A stretch of 64,000 nucleotides of DNA from Pseudomonadota bacterium (GTDB lineage: Bacteria > Pseudomonadota > Alphaproteobacteria > Rhodobacterales > Rhodobacteraceae): the NCBI GenBank assembly GCA_039026235.1, contig JBCCMQ010000008.1, forward strand, positions 62,771 to 126,770, in the 5' to 3' direction. Positions 2,950-31,321 of this stretch are shown here, one piece after another. The position numbers were made by a program, and so were the translations under genes. The notes under the pieces were generated by a model. That model saw nothing but the letters and a program-made list of their open reading frames with translations, ran no database searches and was not told where the DNA came from. Numbering within the stretch: position 1 is the first letter of the stretch; every line of letters begins with the position of its first letter.

Positions 2950-3042
2950 GATTTAAGCTAATATGTTGGCAACGCCGCCCGCAACCGGCGGCTGCCCTCA
3001 ACTGCCCGCCCGGGTTCCCTGAACGCACCAGCGCACATTGCT

Positions 3043-3843: not shown

Positions 3844-3953
3844 GGATCAGACGTGGCACGGGAATTGGGAGTTGTTTTGAGATCGAATTACTGTAGCTTG
3901 GTTTTTATGCAAAAATCGAGACCAAAAGTCTCATTTTTTAGCATTGGGGAGAT

Positions 3954-5555: not shown

Positions 5556-5696
5556 CACGGAATTTGGGCAGCAAAGGGCATTTCGGCAAAGAACCGAAGC
5601 CCTGGGCAAAGGAGTAACTGGAAACGCCGGGCGCAGCGCCTTCGTCTCCCGGCTCAACGATCGAACAAGAAGGCTACGAACACAGGGAGGAGAACC

Positions 5697-6791
5697 ATGT
5701 TCAAACTAAAGACCCTTGCGACTGGCGCAGCGGCGCTGTCGCTCATGGCCTCGGCTGCCGTTGCCGAGACAGTCATCCGCGTCCAGTCGGTGATCCCGGC
5801 GCAGGCGGACGAAGTCACCATGCTGAACGAGTTTGCCACGGACGTCGCAGAACTGACCAACGGCGAGGTCAGGATCGAGGTTCTGCCCGCAGGTGCCGTG
5901 GTTGGCGTTCGCGAAACACTGGACGCCGTGGACAGCGGCCTGATCGAAGGTGGCTTTGCCTGGACACACTATTGGTCGGGCAAGCATCCGGCCGCTATGC
6001 TGTTCGGTTCACCCGTTGCCGGCGCCGGTGTCGGCATCGACAACATCGCCTTCCTCAGCTGGTTCCAATACGGCGGCGGAAAAGAGCTTTACGACCAGCT
6101 TTGGGACGAAATGGGCGTCAACGTGAAGGGATTCATGTTGCAGCCGGTTGGGCCCGAAGCGCTGGGCTGGTTCTCAGAGCCGATCACATCGATGGAGGAT
6201 TTCCGCAAGTACCGCTTCCGGACGCCTCCGGGCATCCCCGGCCAGACCTATAAGGATATCGGCGTGGCGTCGGTGGCCATGGGTGGCGGCGACATCTTGC
6301 CAGCGCTCGAAAAAGGCACGATCGATGCGGCGGAATGGTGCTGTCCAAAGCCGGATTCGGTCTTTGGCTTCCAGAAGGTGCTGAAGCACTACTATCTGCA
6401 GGGCCTCCACCAGGTGGTGGTGAATGCCGATCTCTACATAAACGGCGACGTCTATGACAGCCTGACGCCACTGCAGCAGAAGGCGCTGGAAGTTGCGGCC
6501 AACGCGTCGCTGTCCAAGGCCATGTCCTATCGGATCTACGAAAACGGCAAGGCCCTGAAGGATTTGACCGAAAACCACGGCGTCATCCTGCATGACACGC
6601 CCGAAGACTACTTCACGCAGTACATGGAAGCGGCCAAGGCCGCGCTGGAAACCAACGCTGCCGAGAACGAGTTTTTCGCGGAAGTGTGGCAGAGCCAGAA
6701 GGACTTTGCAGAGATCGCAGTTCCTTTCTGGGCCGGTGCCCAGACCTCAAACGCGAACTTGGGCAAGGCCTTCGCGGACAGCCTGAAGTAA
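5697..6791 (+). CDS. TRAP transporter substrate-binding protein (DctP-like, COG4663 type)
   Basis: 364 aa with a signal peptide (AAALSLMASAAVA). Its length and sequence are DctP-like, and it lies directly upstream of a TRAP membrane component. Confidence 0.85.
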   Translation: MFKLKTLATGAAALSLMASAAVAETVIRVQSVIPAQADEVTMLNEFATDVAELTNGEVRIEVLPAGAVVGVRETLDAVDSGLIEGGFAWTHYWSGKHPAAMLFGSPVAGAGVGIDNIAFLSWFQYGGGKELYDQLWDEMGVNVKGFMLQPVGPEALGWFSEPITSMEDFRKYRFRTPPGIPGQTYKDIGVASVAMGGGDILPALEKGTIDAAEWCCPKPDSVFGFQKVLKHYYLQGLHQVVVNADLYINGDVYDSLTPLQQKALEVAANASLSKAMSYRIYENGKALKDLTENHGVILHDTPEDYFTQYMEAAKAALETNAAENEFFAEVWQSQKDFAEIAVPFWAGAQTSNANLGKAFADSLK

Positions 6792-6868
6792 AACGCAGCT
6801 GAAAGAATGGAAGGCGCGGCGCCTGCCGGGCCTTCCCACCAAACACGCGGCCAACGGGGACAAGTGGC

Positions 6869-17131: not shown

Positions 17132-18709
17132 ATGCGCATGCAGTCGCGTAGACATCCATCCACTTCAGCCGTCCAGCTCGTTTGGTTCAAGCGGGACCTG
17201 CGCGTTCAGGACCATCGTGTACTGGCACGGGCCGCGAAAGAAGGCGACGTCCTTCCGATTTACGTTGTCGAACCGGACCTCTGGAAACAGTCCGATATGT
17301 CCGGACGGCAGTGGGCATTCGTGCGCGAGTGCCTTGTCGACCTAAGGGACCAACTGGGCGCCTTGGGACAGCCACTGGTGGTGCGGCGTGGAGACGTGAC
17401 CGACGTATTCGACGAACTCAACCGCGCATTTGGTGTTGCTGCTTTGTGGTCGCACGAAGAGACAGGCAATGACTGGACCTACAGACGCGACAAGCGCGTT
17501 GCCGATTGGTGCCGCGACAAGGGTATCGCGTGGCATGAGATCCAACAGAACGGAACCCAGCGTCGCCTGAAGAACCGGGATGGTTGGGCAAAGGCTTGGG
17601 ACGCATATATGGCGGAGCCCCAGACCGAACCGCCCCTACTACGGCCACTGTCTGATATTGCAGCCAATGACATCCCAACTTCACGTGATCTCGGCCTTGC
17701 CGAAGATTATTGCCCCGGACGTCAGGCGGGCGGGCGGGACGCGGGGCTAGAGCGTCTGGAGTCTTTTCTCCTAGAACGCGGCCGGAACTATCGGTCAGAC
17801 ATGTCGAGCCCGCTTGCCGGTGCGACCTCTTGTTCGCGTATTTCACCGTATCTGGCGTGGGGGTCGCTCTCGATGAGAGAGGTCGCGCAAAGGAGCTGGG
17901 CAAGGCAGCGCACGCTCAAACAAATGCCCAAGGCAAGCAGTCGCACTTGGCGCGGTTCACTGACGTCATTTTCCGGGCGGCTTCATTGGCATTGTCATTT
18001 CATCCAGAAGCTCGAAGACGAACCGCGGCTAGAGCGCGAGGATCTGCATCCCGCCTATGCCGGTTTGCGCCCGCTTGAACCGGATGCCGAACGGCTGGCC
18101 GCCTGGGCAAAGGGCGAGACCGGTTTGCCCTTTGTCGATGCTTGCATGCGTTCGCTCGCGGCGACGGGTTGGTTGAATTTTCGCATGCGGGCAATGGTCA
18201 CGGCTACGGCGAGCTATCATCTTTGGCTCGATTGGCGCAAACCGGGCGAACACCTGGCGCGGCAGTTTACCGACTATGAACCGGGTATCCACTGGCCCCA
18301 GGTTCAGATGCAATCGGGCACGACGGGCATTAACACGGTCCGTATCTATAATCCCGTCAAGCAAGGATATGATCAGGATCCCGACGGGCAGTTTGTGCGC
18401 CGCTGGGTCCCAGAACTCGACGGCATTGACCCCGAGCACTTGCAAGAGCCTTGGAAGGCCGCGAACGCCAGCGAGATCATGGGAAAGATCTATCCGTTCC
18501 CAATCGTTGATCACCTGGCCGCCGCGAAAGAAGCGCGCCAAAAAATCTGGGCTGTCAGACGTGGCAGTGAGTTTCGCAGCCAGGCAAAAGCCATTCAGCA
18601 AAAGCACGGGAGCCGGAAAAGCGGCATTCCCACGCGCGGCCGGAGCCCCTCGAAAAAACCAAACGGTGATCAGCTCAGTCTTGCGCTTGGTCCGGCGGGC
18701 ACACCGTGA
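17132..18709 (+). CDS. cryptochrome/photolyase-family FAD protein
   Basis: 525 aa with an N-terminal alpha/beta domain (LVWFKRDLRVQDHRVLARA) and an FAD-binding domain (SRISPYLAWGSLSMREV, RLHWHCHFIQKLEDEP, WLNFRMRAMV). The subclass cannot be assigned from sequence alone. Confidence 0.8.
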   Translation: MRMQSRRHPSTSAVQLVWFKRDLRVQDHRVLARAAKEGDVLPIYVVEPDLWKQSDMSGRQWAFVRECLVDLRDQLGALGQPLVVRRGDVTDVFDELNRAFGVAALWSHEETGNDWTYRRDKRVADWCRDKGIAWHEIQQNGTQRRLKNRDGWAKAWDAYMAEPQTEPPLLRPLSDIAANDIPTSRDLGLAEDYCPGRQAGGRDAGLERLESFLLERGRNYRSDMSSPLAGATSCSRISPYLAWGSLSMREVAQRSWARQRTLKQMPKASSRTWRGSLTSFSGRLHWHCHFIQKLEDEPRLEREDLHPAYAGLRPLEPDAERLAAWAKGETGLPFVDACMRSLAATGWLNFRMRAMVTATASYHLWLDWRKPGEHLARQFTDYEPGIHWPQVQMQSGTTGINTVRIYNPVKQGYDQDPDGQFVRRWVPELDGIDPEHLQEPWKAANASEIMGKIYPFPIVDHLAAAKEARQKIWAVRRGSEFRSQAKAIQQKHGSRKSGIPTRGRSPSKKPNGDQLSLALGPAGTP

Positions 18710-18861
18710 AAACGAAGCGAAAAGCCGATCTGCCGACCAAGACATGTGCGGCCTGCGCGCGCCCGTTTTCGTGGCGCAGAAAGTGGGCGAAGGTCTGGGA
18801 TGAAGTGCGCTACTGCTCTGAAAGGTGCAGGCGCTCTGCCAAGTCGGGGGACCGCGCTTGA
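18706..18861 (+). CDS. DUF2256 zinc-ribbon small protein (51 aa; absent from the ORF track because it is under 60 aa)
   Basis: A GTG at 18706 overlaps the photolyase stop (GTGA). The translation is VKTKRKADLPTKTCAACARPFSWRKKWAKVWDEVRYCSERCRRSAKSGDRA, with CxxC...CxxxC spacing and the RKKW..WDEV.YCS.RC pattern of DUF2256. That family is commonly linked to photolyase genes. Confidence 0.7.
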   Translation: MKTKRKADLPTKTCAACARPFSWRRKWAKVWDEVRYCSERCRRSAKSGDRA

Positions 18862-20111
18862 CCCAGCTCAACCTGTTTGGTGACCGTTCGCTGGCATCCG
18901 TCACATGGACGGGCGAAAGGGCGGCGGCGGTCGACCGATTGAAAACCTTCCTGCCCCGGGCCGGTCGGGACTATGCCGCCCGCCGCAACTATGATTTGGG
19001 TCGCGCAGACCGCTCGAATGTCTCTTGCCTCTCGCCCTGGATCCGCCACCGGCTACTTTTGGAAGAAGACGTGCTGCGTGCCACACTCGATCGGCATGCG
19101 CCGTCCAGTGCAGACAAGTTCGTTCAAGAGGTCTTCTGGCGGGCCTACTTTAAAGGATGGCTGCAACATCGCCCAAGTGTCTGGTTCAGCTACCGGGCTG
19201 AGATCGACCGACTTATCGAGACCCTAGAGCGTTCGCCTGAAATGAATGCTCTCTACAAAACGGCAGTCCAAGGAACCACAGGCATTGACTGCTTTGATGC
19301 CTGGGCGAAAGAGCTTGTTGAAACGGGCTATCTCCACAACCACACCCGCATGTGGTTCGCGAGCATCTGGATATTTACCCTTCGCCTTCCCTGGCAGCTT
19401 GGCGCTGATTTTTTCTACCGAAACCTGCTCGACGGGGATCCGGCATCGAACACATTGTCCTGGCGCTGGGTGGGCGGGCTGCACACGAAAGGCAAAACCT
19501 ACCTCGCCCGCAAATCGAACATCGAAAAGTACACCGAAGGTAGATTTTCCCCCATCGGGTTGGCCGGTTCGGCGCCCGCCCTTGTCGAAGACGAACACCA
19601 CGCCCTCCAGCCTAAGCCTTCCGGAATGCCTTTAGTCAGTGCCAAGCCCTTCGCACTGATCCTCACCGAAGAGGACTGCAACGCAGAAAGCCTGCCTTTG
19701 CCCGGGAAGCCCAAGGGTATCTGTAGTCTCGGCGCAACGGCGGCCCGCTCATCATTGGAGGTCGGTGCACAGGCCCAAAAATTTACCGCTGAGGCGATGG
19801 CGGACGGCCTTGATCGCGCGCGGGACCACTTTCAGTGCGACGGCCAGCAAATCGAAACCAAAGACTGGGGACCTTTCCTCGTGGACTGGGCGCAGGAACT
19901 GGGTGTCGACACAATTCTCACCGCCCAAGCGCCCATCGGACCGACACGAGAGCACATCGACGGGGCCCGCACCGCCCTGAAGAGTGCAGGAATTACCCTT
20001 GCCGAGATCGGACGCCCCTATGATGAAGCCTGTTGGACCTATGCCACCAAGGGTTTCTTCGGGCTCAAGGCCAAAATCCCGCATCTTGTAGAAAAGCTAG
20101 ACCTTGGCTGA
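18858..20111 (+). CDS. photolyase-related FAD-binding domain protein (atypical domain order)
   Basis: Photolyase FAD-domain motifs lie in the N-terminal half (FVQEVFWRAYFKGW, TGYLHNHTRMWFASIWIFTLRLPWQLGADFF...DGDPASNTLSWRWVGG). The start is uncertain: the ORF opens at 18825, and a TTG at 18858 overlaps the DUF2256 stop (cTTGA). Confidence 0.7.
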   Translation: MTQLNLFGDRSLASVTWTGERAAAVDRLKTFLPRAGRDYAARRNYDLGRADRSNVSCLSPWIRHRLLLEEDVLRATLDRHAPSSADKFVQEVFWRAYFKGWLQHRPSVWFSYRAEIDRLIETLERSPEMNALYKTAVQGTTGIDCFDAWAKELVETGYLHNHTRMWFASIWIFTLRLPWQLGADFFYRNLLDGDPASNTLSWRWVGGLHTKGKTYLARKSNIEKYTEGRFSPIGLAGSAPALVEDEHHALQPKPSGMPLVSAKPFALILTEEDCNAESLPLPGKPKGICSLGATAARSSLEVGAQAQKFTAEAMADGLDRARDHFQCDGQQIETKDWGPFLVDWAQELGVDTILTAQAPIGPTREHIDGARTALKSAGITLAEIGRPYDEACWTYATKGFFGLKAKIPHLVEKLDLG

Positions 20112-20260: not shown

Positions 20261-20306
20261 TGGTGCCGCTGAAGGGACTCGAACCCCCGACCCCATCATT
20301 ACGAAT
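20261..20306. repeat. distal att repeat: 46-bp perfect copy of the 3' half of tRNA-Thr (not a functional tRNA)
   Basis: tggtgccgctgaagggactcgaacccccgaccccatcattacgaat is identical to 31144-31189. Identity ends exactly at 20260/20307. The 5' half of the tRNA is absent here. Confidence 0.9.
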
Positions 20307-20465
20307 TAAATTTCTAGAGTTGTAGACGGTCGCAGTGCGTAGTGAAACACTGTGTTTCCTGATTGAAGTGGCTGTTTTTATTGAAATATTGCACGTGTCT
20401 AGTAGCTATCAATCGCACACAAGCGCGGTAGAAAAAACACCCAAACAACACCCAAGGATAGCAAC

Positions 20466-21671
20466 TTGCCCAAGATTTCCATGACGATGAAGAAGATCGA
20501 AAGCCTGCCTGTCCCGAAGACTGGCCGGGTCGATTACACAGACGCGGACAACCGTGGGCTTACCCTTCGTGTCAATCACAACGGCACAAAAACATGGTCG
20601 TTGCTGTACCGTGTGGTGGGCGAGAAGCTAAACGCGAAAGGCGACCCAATACGCGGCGATCAACGGCGAATTACACTGGGTTCCTACGATTTATTGGGCT
20701 TAGCTGATGCGCGTGAAAAGGCTCGTGACATCATGAAAATCGCCAATAGTGGTACCGACCCAAAAGAAAGTGCCCGCAGTGCGGCGCTGAGGCGGATCGA
20801 CGGGACGGTCGAAAAGGTTGCAGAGGAGATGTGCGATCTGTCGATGGTAAAGTCGATAGAACAGATGCGCCGTTACTTTCGGCTGCATATCAACCCAAGG
20901 TTTGGGCGACGACCGATGCAAGACATTACCCTTGCTGAAATCAATGAGCATTTGGATCAGTATGTTCGGGACGGGCAAGCACCGACTGCGCGAAGCATTT
21001 CAGCATACCTTCATAAGCTGTGGAAGTTCGCCCACCAGCGTGGCCGGGTCGATGTCAACATAATGCTGAGCCTTGATCGTGATGACATTGCATATGAACC
21101 ACGCTCAAGGATCTTGTCTGATGAAGAACTTAAGATCGTTTGGGCAGCGACACAGAGCATGACACCCCCTTATGGCCAACTTGCTCAGTTACTAATGCTG
21201 ACTGGTCTTCGAAAAAATGAAGTGTCGCAGGCCCGGTGGGACGAGGTTGATGAAACCCGCCGTGGAATAGTCGTCCCTGAAAATCGTGCCAAGAATGGTG
21301 AAACTTTGTTGGCACCTTTCTCTGATAAGGCGTGGGACATTCTTCAGTCGATGCGCGATCGTGGTGGGCCATACATCTTTTCGACGACAGGCGGTGAAAA
21401 GCCAGTATCACCCGGTGGAAGGCACTTTCCAAAGATGCTTCGCTCCGCTTGCGGCAACGACATGGAACACTTCACCCCGCATGATCTGCGCCGGACATTG
21501 CGCACAAACTTGGCTGGGCTCGGTGTGGATGAAATCGTTTCTGAAAGGGTTATAGGTCACAAGCTGCAAGGCGTCGCCGCGGTCTACAATCGCTATCACT
21601 ACACCGAAGAACGGCGTGATGCTCTCAATCGTTATGCCCAGCACTTGGAGGGTTTGATTGATGAGCAGTAA
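20466..21671 (+). CDS. int: tyrosine integrase, P4-type (DUF4102 arm-binding N-terminus)
   Basis: 401 aa. The N-terminus, DADNRGLTLRVNHNGTKTWSLLYRV, is typical of P4-like integrases. Catalytic motifs are LTGLRKNEV (R), HDLRRTLRT (HxxR) and VIGHKLQGVAAVYNRYHY (H...Y). The track start is a TTG; ATGs at 20481 and 20487 are alternatives. Confidence 0.9.
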   Translation: MPKISMTMKKIESLPVPKTGRVDYTDADNRGLTLRVNHNGTKTWSLLYRVVGEKLNAKGDPIRGDQRRITLGSYDLLGLADAREKARDIMKIANSGTDPKESARSAALRRIDGTVEKVAEEMCDLSMVKSIEQMRRYFRLHINPRFGRRPMQDITLAEINEHLDQYVRDGQAPTARSISAYLHKLWKFAHQRGRVDVNIMLSLDRDDIAYEPRSRILSDEELKIVWAATQSMTPPYGQLAQLLMLTGLRKNEVSQARWDEVDETRRGIVVPENRAKNGETLLAPFSDKAWDILQSMRDRGGPYIFSTTGGEKPVSPGGRHFPKMLRSACGNDMEHFTPHDLRRTLRTNLAGLGVDEIVSERVIGHKLQGVAAVYNRYHYTEERRDALNRYAQHLEGLIDEQ

Positions 21672-22380
21672 AGCAATAGCCGAAAAGGTTGGCTCGCCAG
21701 TGACTGTCGAAGAAGTGGAGGCGCTTATGCGCTTTGCCGGGATATTGTTCGATCAAGTTCAGAGCGACGCCAAAAAGCTGACTTCAGGGTCTGAACGTAC
21801 ACCCTACGACTACACGGAATACGGTAAGTACCGCGAAGATGATCTACCGCTATTTTCCCCTCAGCCGGGCAAACGCGGGCCAAAGGAGAAACCTGTTCGT
21901 ATGTTCTTGCGGCACTTCTTTCCAATCATCGAATACATGATGTCCAGCACTCATGAGCGGATCGAAGATCGAGTGGCTGTCAAAAAGGCGAACTGGTGGG
22001 TCGAAGGCGGAAAACGTGTCCATGATGGCGGAACAAAAGTGGCAGAAGAAGATCAGTTCGACGCACTCAACCAACTTGGAAAATTAGCTTTCCTTATCAC
22101 TAAGGAATTCTACCCAAACGTTTCCATTGGCGGAAAAACAGATCGCTCCAAGAACCGCGACGGCGACTTTCACGCAGTTCTGCACCCTAAAGGGCTACCG
22201 TATCAACTTACCCCAAGAGAAGTTCAGCGGCTCAAGGAAATGCGTACAGTTCAGACCTTCCTAGAGGATTTGATAGCCGAACGCGGTTTGGTTGGATGCG
22301 AAGAATACTTAATGCGTGACCCGGTCCGGTGGGAAGCTGAAGTTGCTGAATTGAGGAAGCAAATACGATCCGAAAAGTGA
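21658..22380 (+). CDS. hypothetical protein (island orphan)
   Basis: 240-aa ORF that overlaps the end of int by 14 nt. Its codon usage is consistent with the island. I recognise no motif. Confidence 0.5.
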   Translation: MMSSKAIAEKVGSPVTVEEVEALMRFAGILFDQVQSDAKKLTSGSERTPYDYTEYGKYREDDLPLFSPQPGKRGPKEKPVRMFLRHFFPIIEYMMSSTHERIEDRVAVKKANWWVEGGKRVHDGGTKVAEEDQFDALNQLGKLAFLITKEFYPNVSIGGKTDRSKNRDGDFHAVLHPKGLPYQLTPREVQRLKEMRTVQTFLEDLIAERGLVGCEEYLMRDPVRWEAEVAELRKQIRSEK

Positions 22381-22453
22381 ATTAATACTACCGCGATTAT
22401 GAGCGGCTGACAGGCGTAGGTTTGTGCAGACAACAGCACAAGGAACCTGACCA

Positions 22454-22681
22454 ATGTCGTACCATCTGATAACAAAAGAAGAAGTCCTGAAGCGGACTTC
22501 AATCAACCCCCATTCACTGCGTGGCATGTGGGAACGTAACCTATTTCCCAAACCGGTGAAGCTTAGCGCAAAGTGCATCCGCTTTGTTGAAAGCGAAGTC
22601 CAAAACTGGCTTGACGCAAAGATGATCGCAGCGGGAAAGACGATCCCCGATCAACCAACGTTGTGTGACGACAAATTGTAA
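22454..22681 (+). CDS. alpA: AlpA-family phage regulatory protein / excisionase-like HTH
   Basis: 75 aa. LITKEEVLKRTSINPHSLRGMWERNLFPKPVKLSAKCIRFVESEVQNWL matches the AlpA pattern (...FPKPvkl....W.esEv..Wl). Confidence 0.75.
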   Translation: MSYHLITKEEVLKRTSINPHSLRGMWERNLFPKPVKLSAKCIRFVESEVQNWLDAKMIAAGKTIPDQPTLCDDKL

Positions 22682-22743
22682 TGGGACCGGCGTGGCCCGC
22701 CAGATACTGAGGCAAAACGCGCCCGGTCCTCCTAATCGGAGGA

Positions 22744-25341
22744 TTGCACTTGAAAGATAATTTGAAAGTGTCCCCAGTCGCGTTCGTTTCGCGCCTGCAC
22801 GAAGGATACAACCGATCCGGGATTGTGGCGTTTCCGCCGGGTGCAAAGAAGCCTGTGGCCCGGAACTTCAACCTGTTCCACGGCGATGGGCAAATCAGAG
22901 CTGGTGGATTTGTTCAGGTTCATTCTGAAGGGAACCTGTATTTCCAGTTGAACCCGGCCATGGACAACATTTCGTCACAGGCCAAGCAAAGCCGGGCCAC
23001 GACGAAAGATGTCATCGCGTTCCATGTGGACATAGACCCTGACCCGTTACCGGCCCACCACAAGGTCAAAGACCCTGTGGAATGGACCAAGATGGAACAA
23101 GAGCGCATTCATGGGCTGTTGACCTACAATCTGCCCAAGGGTGCCCCGGAACCGTCGATCATCATCTTTTCAGGTGGTGGCTTTCAAGCGATCTGGCTTC
23201 TAAGGGAACCGATCAGGATCAACGGTGACATCGGTGTGGCTGAAGACGCCGCCTTATACAACGTGAAGCTGGAATGGCTGTTTGGGGCCGACAACACCCA
23301 CAACATTGACCGCTTGCTTCGACTTCCGGGAACGATGAACCGACCCCATCCGGCCAAGCGAAAGAAAGGCCGGACGGACGAAATGGCGCGACTGATCAAG
23401 TGTGACTTTGATCTGCGCTATGACCTGTCTGAATTCCAGAAGGGTAAGAAGTCCTTCGCCATGTCGGAAGACATGTCCAAGATCGACATCAGTGAAGTCC
23501 GGCACCCGGACGCCGCTGAAGTCGAAGGGCTGTTGAAGGCATGGAACGAAGGCAAGCCCAAAGACATCCAGCGCGACCCGGCCACCTTCATGGCGATGCT
23601 GGGCGAAGGTCGGGGGATCAAACCGAAGGAAAAGGACGACAGCCGTTCCGCTTGGTGGTTCGACGCCGCTTGTCACCTTCAACGGATCGGTCTGGATAGC
23701 GGTGGCATCGTGGGCATCATGTCCAACCCTGACCTGAAGATCAGCGAAAGCATGTATCACAACGCGGATGGTGTGGTCATCCCGAACCCCATCGGGACCA
23801 CGATCCGACAAGTGAAGCGCGCGATCCACCGGGTCGATCACGACGACGAATTGAAGGATCAGGAACGCGAAGAAACGAACGGAAGCTGGCTGGAATACAT
23901 GAACGACCGCTATTGTGTCGTTAAGTCCGAAGGCGGGAAGACCCGTGTCTTCAGTTGGGGCTTGTCCGATTTGGTGGACCCCGCGACCCTTGAAGACGGC
24001 GAGGAAGTGAAGTTCCAACAGCCCACCCTTCAGACGTTCGGGGACATCCAGCAAGCCTATGTGAACCAGAAGGTCATGGTTCTGAAGATGACCCGTGATG
24101 GCCCAAAGGAAGTCCCGGTGGGCTTGGGTCACTGGTGGCTGGAACACCCAGAACGCCGAACCTACCAATCCCTGAAATTCGCGCCCCATGTTGACGAACA
24201 GGTTATCCAGATCGGTGGCAATGAATACCTGAACCTGTGGAACGGATTTGGGGTTGATGCTGCCCAAGGAAGCTGGAAGCGCATGCAAGATCACATCCTT
24301 CACCAAGCGGCCAAGGGCAACAAAGAACACTATGACTACATCATCAGGTGGCTGGCCTTCGCAGTCCAGTTCCCAGAAAAACAGGCCGAAGTTGCGCTGA
24401 CGTTTCGGGGAAGCAAGGGCACAGGAAAGGGTGTCATTGGGCGCGCGATGTGCAAGCTGTTTGGGAATGCTGGACTTCAGGTCAGTTCATCATCGCACCT
24501 GACCGGCAAGTTTAACGCCCACCTTCGTGGGAAGGTCATCCTGTTCGCTGATGAAGCCGTGGCCCCGGATGATCGCCACAGCGAAGCCGCCCTGAAGCGG
24601 AACATCACCGAAGACACCTTGACCATTGAAATGAAGGGATATGACCCGATCCCCGGCCCGAACATGCTTCACATCATCATCGCGGGCAACGATGACATGG
24701 TGATCCGTGCGACCGCAGACGAACGGCGATACGCGGTCTTCGAAATCAACGAAAAGAAGGACCAGAACTACTACAAAGCCCTGTATCAGGAAATGAACCA
24801 CGGCGGTTATGAAGCCATGTTGTACGACCTTCAGCGCGTGGACCTGACTGGCTGGCACCCTCGCCAGAACATCCCGAACACGGACGCTCTTCAAGCGCAG
24901 AAACTACATGGGCTGAAGCCGACCGAACGCTGGCTGTTTGAAATCCTTCAGTCTGGTGAACTTGCCGGGACTTCAGCAGTCAAACAAGCGCACAGTTTGC
25001 GGAAAACCGTGATGTCCAACGCCCAACCAGCACGGGATAGCAATGGGCGTCTGGTCGGCGGTATGGTCCCCGGACTTTATGACACCATGCGGAAGGCCGT
25101 CCCCGGCTTGCGCGATCAAGACAATCAGGTCTTTGCGTCTTTCCTGAAGGAATGGGGATGTACGAACCACCGCGACACAGGGACCGGGAAGCCTTCCTAT
25201 TGGTTGTTCCCCACCCTGAAAGAAATGCGTGGGCTGTTTGAAGCCAAGTTCGGCCATATCGACTGGGGCACAATCACCGACTGGGACGGCGCTCATCACG
25301 AAACAGCACGACCCGGCGAACAGAAGGAAGCAGCGGTTTGA
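22744..25341 (+). CDS. AEP primase-polymerase fused to SF3 (D5/P4-like) helicase
   Basis: The N-terminus carries AEP motifs: FHVDIDPD (DxD), FSGGGFQAIWLL and LLRLPGTMN. The C-terminus carries SF3 NTPase motifs: Walker A FRGSKGTGKGV and Walker B VILFADEA. A TTG at 22750, 7 nt after GGAGGA, is a likely true start. Confidence 0.8.
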   Translation: MHLKDNLKVSPVAFVSRLHEGYNRSGIVAFPPGAKKPVARNFNLFHGDGQIRAGGFVQVHSEGNLYFQLNPAMDNISSQAKQSRATTKDVIAFHVDIDPDPLPAHHKVKDPVEWTKMEQERIHGLLTYNLPKGAPEPSIIIFSGGGFQAIWLLREPIRINGDIGVAEDAALYNVKLEWLFGADNTHNIDRLLRLPGTMNRPHPAKRKKGRTDEMARLIKCDFDLRYDLSEFQKGKKSFAMSEDMSKIDISEVRHPDAAEVEGLLKAWNEGKPKDIQRDPATFMAMLGEGRGIKPKEKDDSRSAWWFDAACHLQRIGLDSGGIVGIMSNPDLKISESMYHNADGVVIPNPIGTTIRQVKRAIHRVDHDDELKDQEREETNGSWLEYMNDRYCVVKSEGGKTRVFSWGLSDLVDPATLEDGEEVKFQQPTLQTFGDIQQAYVNQKVMVLKMTRDGPKEVPVGLGHWWLEHPERRTYQSLKFAPHVDEQVIQIGGNEYLNLWNGFGVDAAQGSWKRMQDHILHQAAKGNKEHYDYIIRWLAFAVQFPEKQAEVALTFRGSKGTGKGVIGRAMCKLFGNAGLQVSSSSHLTGKFNAHLRGKVILFADEAVAPDDRHSEAALKRNITEDTLTIEMKGYDPIPGPNMLHIIIAGNDDMVIRATADERRYAVFEINEKKDQNYYKALYQEMNHGGYEAMLYDLQRVDLTGWHPRQNIPNTDALQAQKLHGLKPTERWLFEILQSGELAGTSAVKQAHSLRKTVMSNAQPARDSNGRLVGGMVPGLYDTMRKAVPGLRDQDNQVFASFLKEWGCTNHRDTGTGKPSYWLFPTLKEMRGLFEAKFGHIDWGTITDWDGAHHETARPGEQKEAAV

Positions 25342-25394
25342 TTTCGGTCCAGTTGGCCGCTTTTGGGCGATAAGTCCCAATACGGACTGCGGTG

Positions 25395-25691
25395 AACAGG
25401 GGTTTCTTGATTTGGACAGGGAACCTTTGTCCATTTTTATCATATTAAAACAATATGTTAGTAGTTATTTCTGCCCATGGACAGGGGGATCGGGGGGGTC
25501 CGCATATCAGCACATCAGGTGGGAACCGAAACTCCTGAGTTTTTGTGGTGTCTCTGAAGCCCAAGCTTCCGGCTTCTATACACCCCTGTATCCTATGTAT
25601 CCCCTGCTCATAAGGAGATAAGAATCTGAAAATAATAGATAATAGCCGGACAGTGGTCGGGACAGGGGTTGGGCTTTAGGACAGGGGTCGG
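25395..25691. repeat. putative replication origin: GGACAG(G/T)GG iterons flanking AT-rich tracts
   Basis: Direct copies lie at 25414, 25479, 25648, 25660 and 25679, with a near copy (AACAGGGG) at 25395. AT-rich stretches lie at about 25431-25473 and 25612-25647. The region is immediately downstream of the primase-helicase gene. Confidence 0.55.
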
Positions 25692-25974
25692 AGGTTTTTT
25701 GTGCTTGGATGCACGCACACAGGGCAACAAGGACGAAATATGCATGAGCGCACGAAAGCAGCGATCCCCACTGCCTCACCGATCTAAAAACGGCACTATT
25801 GAACCATTCCGAGGCCACTTAATGCTCAATGATAGGTTTTGGAAACGTAAGTGGCTGTTTTGAAGTTATTTTCGTTCTTCCGGGGCGCTGCTTGGGTGTT
25901 TTGAGGGAGTTTTTTCACCCAGCACAATTAATACTACCGGGAATTCCAAACGGCAGAACCAGTAGTTTCTGCCC

Positions 25975-26487
25975 ATGTATGAAACGCATCTTATCCAACT
26001 CGCGTATCGCGACCAAGATCAGCCCGGTGAGCCATGGATGGTCACCGATGCTGGCCGTGATTTGGTCCGCAAGGATCGGTCGAATGGTGTCGCACAGGCA
26101 GTGATCGCGGGTCGCTTGGGGATGTCCAGTCGGACCTTCCGTGATGTCCTTGATCGTTGTGAAGCTACCCGTGCGGCGTATGACGAAGGCACTGGGCTGA
26201 TGGAAACCGAACTGGTGTCCTTGCTCATGCAACACGCCCGCGACGGAGATCGCACATCCATCATCTTTGCGCTGAAGGCGCTAGCCGGAAAGCGGGAAGT
26301 TGGTCCGTCACCAGACGCGCCAGCAACGGCCAACCAGCCGTCGATCAATATCACGATCCCACCGGCGTTGTCGTCCGCTGACCTACGGGCGCTGACAGAC
26401 AGCATGCGCACCGTGTCGCCAGATGATGCAGCACCGGATGCGTCCACGGACGACAGGCCTACTAAGCGAAAGAAGGTGATCCGATGA
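25975..26487 (+). CDS. putative small terminase / HTH DNA-binding protein
   Basis: 170 aa with an HTH-like segment (VAQAVIAGRLGMSSRTFRDVL), a SIIFALKALAGKRE segment resembling TerS motifs, and a basic tail. It is the first gene of an overlapping operon that ends with TerL. The assignment is by position and weak similarity only. Confidence 0.45.
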   Translation: MYETHLIQLAYRDQDQPGEPWMVTDAGRDLVRKDRSNGVAQAVIAGRLGMSSRTFRDVLDRCEATRAAYDEGTGLMETELVSLLMQHARDGDRTSIIFALKALAGKREVGPSPDAPATANQPSINITIPPALSSADLRALTDSMRTVSPDDAAPDASTDDRPTKRKKVIR

Positions 26488-26735
26488 ATGACCGCCCCCC
26501 AACCCACCCTTGGGATATGGACCTGATCGACGCCAAGGAATGGGTAGTCCGAACCTTGTTGGAGGCCGCGCGGTCGCCAGAACAGATCGAAGTCGCGGTT
26601 CAGCTTGGTGCGATGGTTCGTCTGGGTTGGATCGAACACATCATCCGCAAACAGAAGCTTGCGTTCATCCGTGCGCAAAAGAAGGCCCATCGGGCCAAGG
26701 CGCTCGCACAAAAGGCAAGGAAGGACGACCGATGA
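26484..26735 (+). CDS. hypothetical small protein (packaging operon)
   Basis: 83 aa. It has 4-nt overlaps with both neighbours (26484-26487 and 26732-26735) and a basic C-terminus. Confidence 0.45.
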   Translation: MNDRPPTHPWDMDLIDAKEWVVRTLLEAARSPEQIEVAVQLGAMVRLGWIEHIIRKQKLAFIRAQKKAHRAKALAQKARKDDR

Positions 26736-27007
26736 CCTACAACCCCGCCCAGTGGGACTTATACGATCCCACGCCGCCCGCTGATCTAAACGATCCGGCG
26801 CAGTATTCCGTTGCTACCCAGATCGACCCCGAAACCGGCTTTCCGTTCGTCGAGACACCGGGCGACCTTGGGCATCAAGAATGGCGACCGATCATCGGTT
26901 ATCGCAACGCCGTGACGGGCGCGCAGCTATTCGGCGCTGTCCGTGTGGGCCGACCCGTCTTCACCAGCGGTAATAGTGCTGACGGCACCGCTACCCGCGC
27001 ACGATAG
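26732..27007 (+). CDS. hypothetical small protein (packaging operon)
   Basis: An internal ATG at 26732 (ATGA overlap with the preceding stop) gives 91 aa, MTYNPAQWDLYDP.... The upstream extension of ORF 26510-27007 overlaps the previous gene. Confidence 0.45.
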   Translation: MTYNPAQWDLYDPTPPADLNDPAQYSVATQIDPETGFPFVETPGDLGHQEWRPIIGYRNAVTGAQLFGAVRVGRPVFTSGNSADGTATRAR

Positions 27008-27020
27008 GAACCTCTGACAG

Positions 27021-28472
27021 ATGACCAACACCCTTTCCACGTCCGCCGAACCTGTCGTGATGTCCGCCCCAGCGGCGATGGAACACAATCCGAAGTCGTT
27101 CCTTGCTGACCAGTGGTTGCAGCAAGTGGACATCGTGCATCATGGCGGATCACGCGGTTCGGGAAAAACGACAGGCGCGATCTTGTCCTTGCTGCGCATC
27201 GTCTTGGAACAGGGTGCGACGGCGCGTGTGTTTGTGGGGCGCGAAAGCCATGCTGGTTGCATCCAGCTTGGCAACGAACTCTTTCTGATGCTCTGCCTTG
27301 CCTTTGGGCAAGGGAACGTGTCCCGAAACCAGAACGCTGGCACGATCAGCATCAAATTTCCTGAAGGCATCGCTAGTGTTGAAATCCGGCCCTTCAGCGA
27401 CACCAAGCAATACGCCTCAATTCAGGGCAAGACCTACACCGCCGCTCTTTTCGATGAAGCCGGGAACTATTCCAAGGCAGGTTGGGATTTGATGTGGCAG
27501 ATCATGTCGAACATGCGCGGCCCGGAAGGAATGCGTCTGCCGGTTCTGATCTTGTCCAACCCCTTCGGTGCCTCTCATGGGCGCATCCGCAAGACGTTCC
27601 TTTCGCATGGTTGGTTCCAGCCGTGGACGGACGACAGTGGGCTGACATACATCAACATCCAGTCCACGCTGTTCGACAACCCGCACATTGATCACAAGGC
27701 ATATGTCGCCCGCCTCAAGCGGTCTTGTGCCGGGAACCAGCCCAAAGAACGCGCATGGATTTACGGGGAGTATGGAAACAACCTGTCGTCCTTCTTCGGC
27801 AATCAGTATGACCCCAACGTCCACCTTCTTCCCGCTGATCTGATCGCCGCCGATCTGATGCAATATCGCCCCATCCTTGGGGGGTCTGGGGACTGGGGCA
27901 CCAGAAGCGCCTGTGCGGGCTTCATTGGCCTGAAACTGCGCAGCGACCTGATCATTGCCGACCGTCACTATCGCGCCGGGTCCATCTTCATCTTGGGCGA
28001 ATGCCACACCTTGGCCGACCGTGACATGGAAGACCTGTCCACCGGGACAGGCATCGCGCCGCAAGGTTGGGCCGAATTGATCAAAGACCTTGCCATCAAT
28101 CAGCAAGGCTTGAAGGCCGTGCCGCCGTTTGTGCAGGACAACGCCCGTGGCCTTGCGAACGACACGGTGACAACCCTAATGGCGCAGGCAGGTGTGCCTT
28201 GCCACGTCCCGTCGAAGGATCGGAAGGGCGGGTGGGCCTTGATCACCCAGCTTCTGGATAATGCCACGACCGGCGACGGTCCCGGCCTCTATATCCACCC
28301 GTCTTGTTCCTACCTGCTGGCGACCTTGCCCGACGCCCCTGCGAACCCAAACGACCCATCGGACCTTGATCCGAAGTGGGACGCAGATCACGCGGTCGAT
28401 GCTCTTTCATACCTCTGCACTTTTCTGACCCAACGCCGTGTCAGGCGCGGTCGAATTCGCGGCGATTACTGA
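27021..28472 (+). CDS. terL: phage terminase large subunit (TerL)
   Basis: 483 aa with Walker A GGSRGSGKT, Walker B TAALFDEAG, and a C-terminal RNaseH-like nuclease with acidic residues (GGSGDWG ... DADHAVDALSYL). Confidence 0.8.
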   Translation: MTNTLSTSAEPVVMSAPAAMEHNPKSFLADQWLQQVDIVHHGGSRGSGKTTGAILSLLRIVLEQGATARVFVGRESHAGCIQLGNELFLMLCLAFGQGNVSRNQNAGTISIKFPEGIASVEIRPFSDTKQYASIQGKTYTAALFDEAGNYSKAGWDLMWQIMSNMRGPEGMRLPVLILSNPFGASHGRIRKTFLSHGWFQPWTDDSGLTYINIQSTLFDNPHIDHKAYVARLKRSCAGNQPKERAWIYGEYGNNLSSFFGNQYDPNVHLLPADLIAADLMQYRPILGGSGDWGTRSACAGFIGLKLRSDLIIADRHYRAGSIFILGECHTLADRDMEDLSTGTGIAPQGWAELIKDLAINQQGLKAVPPFVQDNARGLANDTVTTLMAQAGVPCHVPSKDRKGGWALITQLLDNATTGDGPGLYIHPSCSYLLATLPDAPANPNDPSDLDPKWDADHAVDALSYLCTFLTQRRVRRGRIRGDY

Positions 28473-28501
28473 TCGTCACCCCAACCTTGAAAGGAAAGCA
28501 A

Positions 28502-29380
28502 ATGACAACTGAACTTGAACAAACCGCAACTGAACCTGAACAGATGACAGCCCCGCCGCCGAAGGCCCCCATCGACACCGCCGCGCGGAAAAAACGGGTT
28601 GCGGCCTTGCCCCCAGCGTCCCGCTACCCATTGGGCGCACAGGGTCAAATCTTCGTGCCGATGGCTGAAAGCATTCAGGCCGCTGGACCGCGCGCTGAAG
28701 CCATGTTGCGGGACATCCTGTCCACGCTGGAAAGTGCCCAGAAGGTGATGGACACCTGTGCTGACGCTGAAGACGCTGTGATCAGTTCCGAAAACCAGCT
28801 TCGCCAAGGTGCGAACGCTGACATCGGTCGGTTGGCCATGGTTGATGGGCGCGTGTCATCCATTCCCGGTCGCTATGACGAACTGGCGCGGGCCATGGGA
28901 CCGGCCATCGACAAAGAAATCACCAACTTGGACGCGCGGATCAAGCGCCACAACGATCACATGCTGGCCATGTTGGCCGAAATGGATGCGGCGCTGGTCT
29001 GCAATTGGACCGAAGGCGACAAGAACCTGAAGGCACAGGTCCGGGAACACATGCTGACCCTGACCAAACCCCAACGGAAGGCGTTCATGTCCAAGGCGGC
29101 GACTGAAGGCGATCTGGTGGCGATCCACACGATCCTGACATCCCCGACCTACCTGATGGGCATCGCGGAAACGGACATTGGCGACTTCCGAGAAACCGCC
29201 CGAAAGTTCATCAAACCGGAAAGCTGGAAAGCCTTCGAAGGGGGCAAGAAAGCCGAAAAGGCCATGGGACTGGCGAAGAAGTCGCTGGTCGAAAAGAAGG
29301 CCCGTGTCGAACGCTACCGGCTGGAAGACCAGAAACAAGCCACGGACGCCCTGAACGCCATCAGGACGCTACCGACATGA
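28502..29380 (+). CDS. hypothetical alpha-helical protein downstream of TerL
   Basis: ATG at 28502 is preceded by AAAGGAAAG. The 292-aa protein is charged and probably coiled-coil, with no motif I recognise. A scaffold or size-redirection role is speculation. Confidence 0.55.
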   Translation: MTTELEQTATEPEQMTAPPPKAPIDTAARKKRVAALPPASRYPLGAQGQIFVPMAESIQAAGPRAEAMLRDILSTLESAQKVMDTCADAEDAVISSENQLRQGANADIGRLAMVDGRVSSIPGRYDELARAMGPAIDKEITNLDARIKRHNDHMLAMLAEMDAALVCNWTEGDKNLKAQVREHMLTLTKPQRKAFMSKAATEGDLVAIHTILTSPTYLMGIAETDIGDFRETARKFIKPESWKAFEGGKKAEKAMGLAKKSLVEKKARVERYRLEDQKQATDALNAIRTLPT

Positions 29381-29479
29381 CAGGATGGCTTCGCTTAAAG
29401 GTTGTCTTCAATCTCACCCTGTTTGGGTAGAAGCCTCAACCGGTTAAGGCTTACCAGTTTAATGGCACTCATCAACTTC

Positions 29480-30094
29480 CTATGGCGCCCGCGTAGCCAA
29501 AAAGACAACGGCTAGTTCACGCCCATAGTGCCAACCGAACCTGTGCGTTCGACGCAGCGATATGAAGGTGGCGAAGGCCAAGAGTGAAACCGCGATCCAG
29601 TCACTTGTTGAGACCGCGCATACGACGGTCAAAATGATTAACGAGGCCGACAAGCCTCGCATCATCCCATAAATCCCGTTGAATTTGTCGATCCGGTTGG
29701 AATGTCCCGACGCCGCGACCCGCGCATAGACCTCGCGCATCGCAGCACGCGCTTCTGTCCTTGATACTGTTTCGCCTATGACGCCGTCCTCACGCAGAAT
29801 TCCAACGAAACGCGCATGCTGCTCACTCGTCAAAGACTCGCCATCCAATACCCGCTTGCTCGGCAATCCACCAAAGGGCCACCAAAGTAGTGTTTCGACG
29901 GTGTTCCCAACACCCTGTACAAGCTGCCCCAGAGCATACGATATTACCACAAACAGACCCAGTTCACCGAACGTGAAGCCGTCGGGGCCGAGGTATGCTT
30001 GAAGTTCCGGAAGCAACCACATTGCCCCGAAGGCCAAAACCGAGCCGGGGACGATGATCCCCGCGTATTCGTAGAACTCAAACGAAACGTTCAC
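29480..30094 (-). CDS. 4-TM membrane protein, partner of the MBL-fold hydrolase (unknown function)
   Basis: A GTG start at 30094 overlaps the upstream stop (GTGA). The 204-aa protein has hydrophobic helices YAGIIVPGSVLAFGAMWLL, LGLFVVISYALGQLVQGV, LSASLIILTVVCAVS and WIAVSLLAFATFISL around a soluble loop of about 90 aa. Confidence 0.6.
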   Translation of the reverse strand: MNVSFEFYEYAGIIVPGSVLAFGAMWLLPELQAYLGPDGFTFGELGLFVVISYALGQLVQGVGNTVETLLWWPFGGLPSKRVLDGESLTSEQHARFVGILREDGVIGETVSRTEARAAMREVYARVAASGHSNRIDKFNGIYGMMRGLSASLIILTVVCAVSTSDWIAVSLLAFATFISLRRTHRFGWHYGRELAVVFLATRAP

Positions 30095-30930
30095 GCAGCG
30101 ATGTTCAGCAGCACCGAGCCGCCTCCCATTTGGTTCAAGTGGAAACGCATTGTGCCATCGCTTCGCGTCGTGAGAACCTTACGCTGCTGTCCATTGTACT
30201 GAAAGCCTTTGGAATGACGTCGGTACAGATCGGTCGTCTCTTGGGTTTGAAAGACTTTTCCCTCATCAGAAATGATGACAGCTTGGATGTTTGGGCAGAG
30301 AGCCATTAGTTCTTCACAGTAGCCGTTTGCCCTACCGTGATGGGAAGCAACGAAGAGATTTACATCGAACAATTCAGCTATGAACGACGGGTCCCGCATT
30401 AGGGCTTTCCAACCCGGCCGTTCTAGGTCGCCGGGGAACAGGACCTTATGCGGCCCACACTTCACAAAGATGGCCAGGCTTAGATTGTTGGTGTCTGTAA
30501 AGCCAAACCTTGGGCTGAATTGGTTCCAATACACGGTGAAGGAAGTATCGCCGAAATCGTATGCTTGTACGCCAAGCGGTGGGCCGCCAGTAAATGTGTT
30601 CAGCATAGCGTTGTGCAAAAGTGCTATGCCATGACCCATACCGTGCTCTGATTTCATGGATGCTAGTTCACGAGGACCGACAGTTGCGTTGGTGGCTAAG
30701 ACATCCACATCCACGTTTCGCATTAGGTTACCAAATCCGGAAACATGGTCTTCGTCGAAGTTCGTGACATACAGCTTATCCACCACACTTATCCCCATAG
30801 CGGAAAGAGCGGTTCCGGGGTACCAACGGTTATGGGCATGGTGGCCGCAGTCGATTAGAACTTGTCGTCCATTGCTTGTCGAGATCAGTGCGCAAGCACC
30901 GTGGTCAACGTCGAATACATTAAGAAGCAT
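30091..30930 (-). CDS. standalone metallo-beta-lactamase-fold hydrolase, ComEC/Rec2 C-terminal-domain type
   Basis: ATG at 30930 lies 6 nt after GGAGG; the track start at 30942 is an upstream GTG. Motifs are DHGACALI..LIDCGH, NFDEDHVSG, FPGDLE and ASHHGRANG, in the order and spacing of the ComEC-like MBL domain. Confidence 0.75.
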   Translation of the reverse strand: MLLNVFDVDHGACALISTSNGRQVLIDCGHHAHNRWYPGTALSAMGISVVDKLYVTNFDEDHVSGFGNLMRNVDVDVLATNATVGPRELASMKSEHGMGHGIALLHNAMLNTFTGGPPLGVQAYDFGDTSFTVYWNQFSPRFGFTDTNNLSLAIFVKCGPHKVLFPGDLERPGWKALMRDPSFIAELFDVNLFVASHHGRANGYCEELMALCPNIQAVIISDEGKVFQTQETTDLYRRHSKGFQYNGQQRKVLTTRSDGTMRFHLNQMGGGSVLLNIAA

Positions 30931-31143
30931 GGCAGCCTCCACTACAGTTTGCGTTTACCTCCCCGACAGCCACAAAATATCGCAGATTCGCGCATGAGTC
31001 GAGTCCGCGTCGTTCTTTATTTGTTCCAAGGCATTAATCGCGCTCGCAATCTAAGCGTCTGGCGTTTCTTTCCAAAAAAACACCCAGCACAACACCCCGC
31101 AGGCTCAGCAGGAACCCAAGTTTTGTGTAAGTGCTTGAGAAGA

Positions 31144-31189
31144 TTGGTGCCGCTGAAGGGACTCGAACCCCCGACCCCATCATTACGAA
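31144..31189. repeat. proximal att repeat (3' 46 nt of tRNA-Thr)
   Basis: Identical to 20261-20306. It spans from the CCA end through the anticodon loop. Confidence 0.9.
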
Positions 31190-31219
31190 TGACGTGCTCT
31201 ACCAGCTGAGCTACAGCGG
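31144..31219 (-). tRNA. tRNA-Thr (anticodon CGU)
   Basis: The reverse complement is GCCGCTGTAGCTCAGCTGGTAGAGCACGTCATTCGTAATGATGGGGTCGGGGGTTCGAGTCCCTTCAGCGGCACCA. It folds as a cloverleaf: 7-bp acceptor GCCGCTG/CAGCGGC, D stem GCTC/GAGC, anticodon loop TTCGTAA, T loop TTCGAGT and an encoded CCA. Confidence 0.95.
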
Positions 31220-31321
31220 CCTTCGGGCCGACCGGCGGCCTGACGAAGTATTGCGCGCCGCTTCTACCGATTTGGGCCCCAAGGTCAACCGCGATCCGTC
31301 GGCTGAGAGCTTTAGCGGCGG

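Follow-up and report, generated by a model that had tools for sequence, protein, structure and literature searches.

A ComEC-like metallo-β-lactamase hydrolase and a four-helix membrane protein as a conserved gene pair and candidate defence module on a tRNA-Thr island

Results and Discussion

Two overlapping genes at the right end of a tRNA-Thr island

The window analysed here, a stretch of 64,000 nucleotides from contig JBCCMQ010000008.1 (positions 62,771 to 126,770) of a Pseudomonadota metagenome-assembled genome (GCA_039026235.1), carries a genomic island of about 10.9 kb (20261-31190), delimited by a perfect 46-nt direct repeat, at whose right end lie the two genes that are the subject of this work: one for a standalone ComEC-type metallo-β-lactamase (MBL)-fold hydrolase and the other for an inner-membrane protein with four predicted transmembrane (TM) helices (Table 1). 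Their products, of 279 and 204 residues, are identical to the consecutive NCBI proteins AAF667_13090 and AAF667_13085 of a Pseudomonadota metagenome-assembled genome. Since the integrase, the primase-helicase and the terminase homologue of the island are all encoded on the plus strand, the pair is its sole minus-strand cargo, and it lies beside attR; this arrangement, which the first-pass annotation had described, was reproduced from the open reading frames (ORFs), the 46-nt repeat and the tRNA prediction by ARAGORN.

The start sites given in that annotation also hold. While the mechanical ORF of the MBL gene (30091..30942) reaches back to a GTG at 30942, the ATG at 30930 that follows a GGAGG agrees with the NCBI-called protein P0001 (100% identity, 279 aa) and with the N-termini of homologues, which likewise back the GTG start of the partner at 30094. 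The GTGA in which the two frames overlap was recovered from the sequence and the ORF list; as no separate Shine-Dalgarno motif lies within about 25 nt of the partner's GTG, this junction implies that the two genes are translationally coupled.

Table 1. Coordinates of the genes and features discussed; positions are those of the window unless a homologous locus is named.
Feature	Position	Strand	Remarks
Standalone ComEC-type MBL-fold hydrolase gene, 279 aa	30091-30930	-	PDC-M48B-like 'MBL2' component
Four-TM inner-membrane protein gene, 204 aa from GTG	29480-30094	-	ORF list; NCBI protein P0121
GTGA junction	30091-30094	-	MBL stop TGA (30093-30091) overlaps partner GTG (30094-30092)
Shine-Dalgarno-like GGAGG	30936-30940	-	5 nt upstream of ATG 30930; read from sequence
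Intergenic region, tRNA-Thr/attR to MBL start	30931-31144	-	49% G+C; presumed promoter region of the two-gene operon
tRNA-Thr(cgt)	31145-31220	-	ARAGORN
attR	31145-31190		3' 46 nt of the tRNA-Thr
attL	20261-20306	.	Perfect 46-nt copy of tRNA-Thr 3' part (direct repeat D1)
Tyrosine integrase of the island	20466-21671	+	Pfam Arm-DNA-bind_3, Phage_integrase, Phage_int_M
Primase/DUF5906 VapE-like helicase of the island	22744-25341	+	Context gene
Distant large-terminase homologue of the island	27021-28472	+	23-25% identity to phage TerL
Four-gene operon, locus L022	3754-8831
Four-gene operon, locus L066	4491-9568
Four-gene operon, locus L086 (Polaromonas pPNAP01)	2515-7550

The two genes are conserved neighbours

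Both proteins have thousands of homologues. We collected 80 non-redundant genomic loci of MBL relatives, classed the adjacent genes by iterated hidden Markov models (HMMs), and found a four-TM partner within 300 bp of the MBL gene in 66 of them, as the first-pass annotation had anticipated. Partners of the family found in the window (class 1) occur in 46 loci, 30 times upstream of the MBL gene, 14 times downstream and twice in convergent orientation, and those of classes 2 and 3 in 10 loci each; a tie between class 3 and the class-1 partners was considered and found unconvincing (hhalign 45%). In seven further loci the partner is encoded 1-4.5 kb from the MBL, and seven have none, one of these at a contig end. 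The commonest junction between the two genes is a 4-nt overlap (16 cases).

The order seen in the window, with the MBL gene first, recurs in Rhodovulum, Thioclava and Bradyrhizobium, where the contexts are unrelated to one another and the partner homologues are 70%, 63% and 33% identical to that of the window, and in all loci of the nine-locus clade to which the window belongs, a standalone two-gene version borne by mobile elements. Distances between MBL proteins co-vary with those between their class-1 partners (Mantel r 0.54, reached by 0 of 2000 permutations), with the partner diverging faster (mean distance 0.77 vs 0.56). The two genes are thus conserved as neighbours far beyond chance.

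The MBL family is patchily distributed: it occurs in single copy, and the majority of genomes in any given clade lack it. Among the nearest neighbours of the pair are the S and M subunits of type I restriction-modification (RM) systems, TIR, WYL and Fic proteins, integrases and HTH-S24 repressors; one relative adjoins an integrase (L005) and another lies in a prophage-like context (L001). The proposal that the pair is mobile-element cargo with a tendency to lie near defence genes is supported by these neighbours, by the att-bounded island of the window and by the linkage to 6A-MBL genes described below. A phage- or plasmid-borne origin of the family was rejected, only three weak phage matches and ten plasmid matches having been obtained.

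Two variant arrangements were observed along the way. In Rhodovulum imhoffii (L001, 5225-5902), a CI/LexA-like repressor with HTH_3 and Peptidase_S24 domains, which also matches the PADLOC capH profile weakly (E 2.4e-6), lies directly upstream of the pair and co-directional with it; such repressors make up 3 of 127 nearest neighbours overall, and DNA-damage-responsive control may operate in some hosts. In Hyphomicrobium, Ferrovum and Acidithiobacillus (L016, L024 and L038, about 3480-8810 in each), there is a double-MBL variant with the order DUF499 (950 aa), class-3 TM protein (222 aa), a second ComEC-like MBL (318 aa; TIGR00361 E 4e-11) and the window-type MBL.

The MBL protein belongs to the ComEC branch

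All MBL motifs quoted in the first-pass annotation are present in the 279-residue protein, as H10-G-A-C13, D27xG29, N57-x-D59-E-D61-H62, P166-G-D168-x-E170 and S196-H-H-G-R200, and most of their residues do not vary across 45 homologues (H10, C13, D27, N57, D59, D61, H62, D168, E170, H197 and H198), so that the enzyme is probably active. Its AlphaFold2 (AF2) model is confident (predicted local distance difference test score, pLDDT, 92.2; predicted template-modelling score 0.91) and finds as its best Foldseek match the nuclease domain of ComEC from Moorella glycerini (9IC4; E 1.2e-14, template-modelling scores 0.74/0.77), followed by pneumococcal Pce/CbpE (E 1e-11) and then by RNase J, INTS11 and CPSF73. 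A profile built from the 45 homologues likewise ranks ComEC β-lactamase-like domains first in the PDB (E 7e-7), in an alignment that covers all five motifs (DVxxG, xxDxDH, NNxSL, GD(L/I)E and HHG), and it also retrieves the phosphorylcholine esterase Pce (E 7e-5). The earlier assignment to the ComEC type is therefore supported at the level of both fold and profile.

Library models recognise the protein less readily. NCBIfam returns low-scoring matches to the C-terminal portion of ComEC_Rec2 (TIGR00361, positions 443-633 of 663; E 4.6e-7, 28 bits vs a cut-off of 190), to Avs1a and to the 6A-MBL enzyme, and Pfam a sub-threshold match to Lactamase_B and nothing else; the competence channel domain PF03772 has no match in this single-domain protein. 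A match to the cyclic-nucleotide phosphodiesterase Apyc1 is weak, both in the window protein (13 bits vs a cut-off of 50) and in several homologues, and an Apyc1-like anti-defence enzyme was rejected as the primary reading on this score and on the location of the gene in cellular island cargo.

The ComEC domain in 9IC4 is a Mn2+-dependent endonuclease and 5'-exonuclease that has very little affinity for DNA by itself and relies for binding on an adjacent oligonucleotide/oligosaccharide-binding (OB) fold, and its own closest structural homologue is Pce. With ComEC/Rec2 the window protein shares the β-lactamase-like nuclease domain and its five motifs and, likely, two-metal phosphodiester hydrolysis. 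In contrast to ComEC, it stands alone, with neither the competence channel nor the OB fold, and has an Asn for the first His of motif 2 and the invariant His10/Cys13 for the Gln/Asp of motif 1. It also carries no signal sequence and starts at the first β-strand of the fold, from which a cytoplasmic location is predicted, whereas the ComEC nuclease is described as extracellular. Most likely, the protein is a binuclear-metal phosphodiesterase of the ComEC branch acting as a Mn2+- or Zn2+-dependent DNase. It may be the membrane-tethered destroyer of incoming DNA that the first-pass annotation proposed, but the phrase 'defensive inversion of ComEC' serves as no more than an analogy.

The partner is a four-helix membrane protein whose family shows remote similarity to Csx27

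The AF2 model of the partner is confident and all-helical (pLDDT 87.6), with helices at residues 7-27, 42-74, 132-162 and 166-202. The layout of two N-terminal and two C-terminal hydrophobic helices proposed earlier is borne out by hydropathy, by the model and by the charge distribution: the two short loops carry no lysine or arginine, the 73-residue loop carries 10 and the C-terminal tail 5, a pattern that points to an N-in/C-in topology in which the long loop and the tail face the cytoplasm. The protein would thus expose a helical loop of about 73 residues and a basic C-terminal helix to the cytoplasm.

Searches of Pfam, NCBIfam and PHROGs with this protein gave no match, and the 117 homologues listed in the annotated protein search are all without a name and without a Pfam domain. 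Foldseek finds no structural neighbour for the model in the PDB (best E 1.3) or among viral models (best E 0.84), so that a pore, holin or transporter fold is not supported. The family itself is large, with 5,160 representatives at 50% identity in an exhaustive profile search (2,700 at E<=1e-10), and its core, R-x-D-x-F-N-x-x-Y-G-x-x-R, lies just before TM3, with Y142 and R146 invariant.

A possible remote relationship emerges with Csx27, the four-TM accessory of type VI-B1 CRISPR systems that dampens Cas13b interference. The Csx27 profile of PADLOC matches the window partner weakly and partially (E 0.0065), and 7 of 10 class-1 relatives, which are joined to the window partner by iterated HMM (E 1e-40 to 1e-84), at E 7e-5 to 8e-8; in five of these (E 1e-5 to 8e-8) the alignment spans about 180 of the 206 model positions. 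The likeness is thus one to the PADLOC profile. Like Csx27, the window partner has about 200 residues and four predicted TM helices. The genomic setting differs, with MBL and island genes around the partner and no Cas13b or CRISPR context; none of the island's ORFs reaches the size of Cas13b, and the dampening of Cas13b has no counterpart at this locus. Multidomain ubiquitin-system proteins and WYL-HTH proteins are reportedly neighbours of Csx27-family genes, and both E2-E1-JAB and WYL neighbours are seen among the loci of MBL relatives.

One metagenomic protein of 550 residues (P0301) carries an N-terminal JAB/JAMM domain (ETGGLLIGS, WHSHL...SPTD) fused to a Csx27-like partner domain at residues 358-541. 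Either the fusion is genuine, in which case it would connect the membrane protein directly with ubiquitin-like machinery, or separate genes were merged in the gene call.

The pair is an order-inverted variant of the TM and MBL module in PDC-M48

The first-pass annotation had regarded the pair as undescribed, expecting no hit to a named system. This part does not hold, as the MBL protein matches the PADLOC model PDC-M48B (PDLC04674) over nearly its full length (E 2.6e-61, 205 bits; residues 5-266 on model positions 1-256 of 270), and the partner family matches the Csx27 profile and is a remote relative of PDC-M48A. An MBL was connected with an E2-E1-JAB protein as early as 2006, Csx27-family proteins were reportedly connected with competence-type and ubiquitin-type genes in 2019, and relatives of the pair sit inside 6A-MBL operons. 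In the supplement of Payne et al., PDC-M48 is the cassette FAM_01875>>FAM_00178 with 63 RefSeq instances, and PDC systems in general were nominated by their embedding in bacteriophage exclusion (BREX), defence island system associated with restriction-modification (DISARM) or type I RM loci. A literature search for 'PDC-M48' returned no paper by that name, so that the definition derives solely from this supplement.

As in PDC-M48, the window combines a small four-TM protein with a PDC-M48B-type MBL, genes that are often translationally coupled. The class-2 partners of sister loci are bona fide PDC-M48A (E about 1e-60), and PDC-M48A itself matches the Csx27 profile weakly. The window partner, on the other hand, has no match to PDC-M48A at E<=1, and class 1 as a whole has only the N-terminal TM hairpin in common with it (hhalign 90%, E 1.6e-6, 66 columns); it is also longer (204 aa vs about 164 aa), with the cytoplasmic loop described above. 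Gene order differs as well, being A>>B in PDC-M48 and MBL first in the window and its whole clade. The copy in the window, island cargo at attR, is neither embedded in nor beside BREX, DISARM or type I RM genes; type I RM or DUF499 genes do adjoin some relatives of the pair. Strict membership in PDC-M48 thus fails on the unmatched A component and the inverted order. From these sequence comparisons, the pair is best filed as a version of the 'TM + MBL' module of PADLOC PDC-M48 that stands alone, has the gene order inverted and includes a Csx27-like partner.

Relatives of the pair form the distal half of 6A-MBL operons

In many loci the pair is preceded by a gene for a protein of about 750 residues that fuses Prok-E2_A, ThiF and Prok-JAB domains and meets the NCBIfam model NF058523 'cap2_3' (631-681 bits vs a cut-off of 320 in L022 and L066), and this gene by one for a protein of about 400 residues that meets NF058524, the 6A-MBL enzyme (390-399 bits vs 220 in the same two loci). 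In 12 of the 80 loci the former lies within 8 kb of the pair, and 10 loci carry the latter; about seven loci have the pair as the distal half, running in the same direction, of an operon of four genes in the order 6A-MBL enzyme, E2-E1-JAB cap2_3, four-TM protein and window-type MBL. The last two genes are swapped in L066 and Polaromonas pPNAP01, where the window-type MBL precedes a class-3 TM protein. Across the linked loci (L022, L030, L057, L065, L066, L076, L085 and Polaromonas pPNAP01), relatives of the window MBL with about 35-45% identity and partners of class 1 or class 3 lie directly downstream of the enzyme and cap2_3. A module of a TM protein and a second MBL may therefore be present in many natural 6A-MBL loci.

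The window pair cannot itself be assigned to 6A-MBL, because both defining genes are absent from the window. The cap2_3 model finds no match among the window ORFs, nor was cap2_3 detected in the analysed sequence of any of the nine loci of the window clade. The window MBL has N-terminal MBL motifs in common with the 6A-MBL enzyme, but scores 21.4 bits on NF058524, a model of an MBL of about 346 residues with a cut-off of 220, and the true enzyme is a separate gene in L022 and L066. NCBIfam holds no model for the TM+MBL2 pair.

In the literature, 6A-MBL is cited as an anti-phage and anti-jumbo-phage system of P. aeruginosa, an MBL is linked to an E2-E1-JAB protein in row 6a of Iyer, Burroughs and Aravind (2006), and 'MBL pathways' are grouped by the Corbett laboratory with type II CBASS (cyclic oligonucleotide-based antiphage signalling system) and Pycsar (pyrimidine cyclase system for antiphage resistance) as Cap2-type conjugation systems. 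None of the text available places the TM+MBL2 pair within the validated two-gene 6A-MBL system.

The C-terminus of the 6A-MBL enzymes is often ...RAG or ...AHG (L022, L025, L035, L057, L065 and L066), in some loci followed by a few extra residues (e.g., L070). These ends are reminiscent of the C-terminal glycine substrates of Cap2-type E1/E2 proteins, possibly exposed by JAB cleavage. The family of the window MBL shows no such C-terminal conservation, and the 'AA' at the end of the window protein was dropped as a candidate conjugation site, given that C-termini vary across the family, cap2_3-linked loci included.

A putative membrane-localised nuclease defence module

We favour the reading that the pair is a membrane-localised nuclease module that defends against phages or other incoming DNA, and put the probability of a defence role at roughly 55% and that of the mechanistic details lower. 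The MBL and its partner would form a membrane-bound complex in which the partner keeps the nuclease at the inner membrane or gates it there; the enzyme would probably dock, or be regulated, on the large, basic cytoplasmic loop of the partner and on its C-terminal helix. An infection-linked cue, such as DNA entry or a perturbation of the membrane, would then lead the nuclease to cut DNA, and the pair, as terminal cargo of a satellite-like island at tRNA-Thr, could protect both host and island. We infer the DNase substrate, the physical complex, the trigger and the defence phenotype alike, and regard a defence role as a reasonable hypothesis. A two-gene functional analogue is Kiwa, made up of the four-TM protein KwaA and the cytosolic DNA-directed effector KwaB, which is not an MBL; there is no meaningful homology between the two systems, the weak match of one PDC-M48A protein to KwaA (E 0.0047) notwithstanding.

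More tentatively, the pair may be an autonomous membrane-gated nuclease that senses DNA entry or envelope perturbation and that can also serve as an exchangeable effector of 6A-MBL, with the Csx27-like partner as the shared sensor or anchor. By analogy, effectors of 6A-MBL would be swapped as they are in CBASS, and the same partner would link type VI-B CRISPR to the membrane.

Several observations weigh against a defence function. The role of the pair is assigned through guilt by association, as the validated 6A-MBL system apparently consists of two other genes and the window has neither, and PDC systems, PDC-M48 included, are explicitly no more than phage defence candidates. The similarity of the window partner itself to Csx27 is only weak and partial. 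Most nearest neighbours across the loci are unremarkable genes, and the Thioclava copy lies among housekeeping-type genes. A scan for sigma-70 consensus sites and terminators gave nothing above shuffled sequences, and no minus-strand promoter-like site was seen in the intergenic region upstream of the MBL gene, where the promoter is presumed to lie. For the enzyme, the Asn in place of the first His of HxHxDH means that metal stoichiometry may differ, and a DNA substrate is not proven, given that Pce is the second-best structural match and that some homologues match Apyc1 weakly.

Four other functions were considered. It is conceivable, if unlikely, that the four-TM protein is a pore-forming or depolarising abortive-infection effector, with the MBL as a sensor or regulator that binds or cleaves a phage-derived nucleic acid or nucleotide signal. 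The relationship of the partner family to Csx27 is compatible with this, as is the fact that Csx28, the other membrane accessory of type VI-B systems, is a membrane pore that depolarises cells; the weak resemblance of a PDC-M48A partner to the Kiwa membrane component KwaA, the weak Apyc1 matches of the window MBL and several homologues, and the faster evolution of the partner, as expected of a phage-facing component (0.77 vs 0.56), point the same way. Yet the partner model is unlike any solved pore or channel (Foldseek E-values above), the MBL retains its full catalytic site and is closest to a DNase, and the activity reported for Csx27 is a down-regulation of interference, not cell killing. 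Rather improbable, in our view, is a device for DNA uptake and degradation, in which a Csx27-like protein serves as a channel for single-stranded DNA, the MBL degrades one strand and a ubiquitin-like system possibly regulates both. This scheme is attributed to Makarova et al. (2019), where Csx27-family genes are said to lie in predicted operons with natural-transformation components and to encode predicted single-stranded DNA channels; the strand-degrading nuclease of ComEC as the closest solved structure of the MBL and the E2-E1-JAB association confirmed among the 80 loci would fit it. The MBL, however, with neither signal peptide nor ComEC channel nor OB domains, would act on the cytoplasmic side, opposite to the extracellular nuclease of ComEC, the membrane protein has no structural neighbour that would speak for a channel, and a patchy spread on islands and plasmids and beside RM and 6A-MBL genes is the pattern of defence cargo and not of a competence regulon.

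We give still less credence to a membrane-anchored phosphoesterase acting on substrates other than nucleic acids (phospholipids, phosphorylcholine-type compounds or small phosphodiesters) in envelope remodelling or metabolism. The rank of Pce/CbpE in both the structural and the profile searches (E 1e-11 and 7e-5), an obligatory membrane partner as the TM anchor and the non-defence surroundings of the Thioclava copy agree with such an enzyme, but the likeness to Pce does not discriminate, given that the ComEC nuclease domain itself has Pce as its nearest structural homologue, and housekeeping envelope chemistry sits poorly with mobile elements, with linkage to 6A-MBL, RM and integrase genes, and with a patchy, single-copy family missing from most genomes of any clade. 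Finally, the pair adjoins a terminase homologue and a primase-helicase within an integrase-bounded 10.9-kb element and could in principle serve the island's own life cycle, by interfering with helper-phage DNA or by processing DNA for packaging. This is very improbable: the same pair occurs in many loci devoid of satellite-like genes, and in the window it runs opposite to all other island genes, at the lower G+C content and third-position G+C (GC3) typical of exchangeable cargo.

Should the favoured defence function prove true, it would provide a function for a membrane family of about 5,000 representatives, for PDC-M48 and for the enigmatic Csx27, identify the likely effector half of the four-gene 6A-MBL operons, and link ubiquitin-like signalling to a membrane-bound nuclease; the standalone two-gene version in the window is the simplest form of the module for testing. 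At present the result amounts to a well-supported annotation with a classification link to PDC-M48, Csx27 and 6A-MBL, and not a new kind of system.

Island context and neighbouring genes

Between its attachment sites the island encodes an integrase, a primase-helicase and a terminase homologue, and no capsid or tail genes were recognised within its approximately 10.9 kb; in gene content it resembles a phage satellite. The island as a whole has a G+C content of 54.7%, the MBL gene 51.4%, the partner gene 55.8% and the two flanks 59.3% and 61.6%, and the pair lies below the replication and packaging genes of the island in both G+C and GC3. The 60-nt counts of the first-pass annotation (29/60 within the pair and 47/60 outside the island) are exact, but its description of the region as far AT-richer than the chromosome overstates a gap that is modest over whole genes.

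Downstream of the terminase homologue, and overlapping it by about 100 nt from a GTG start, lies an ORF of 334 codons (28376-29380), for which an internal ATG (peptide MTTELEQ...) is the more plausible start; its product has no Pfam or PADLOC match. Directly to the left of attL, at 17132-20111, are tandem genes of the photolyase/cryptochrome family (FAD_binding_7, with or without DNA_photolyase).

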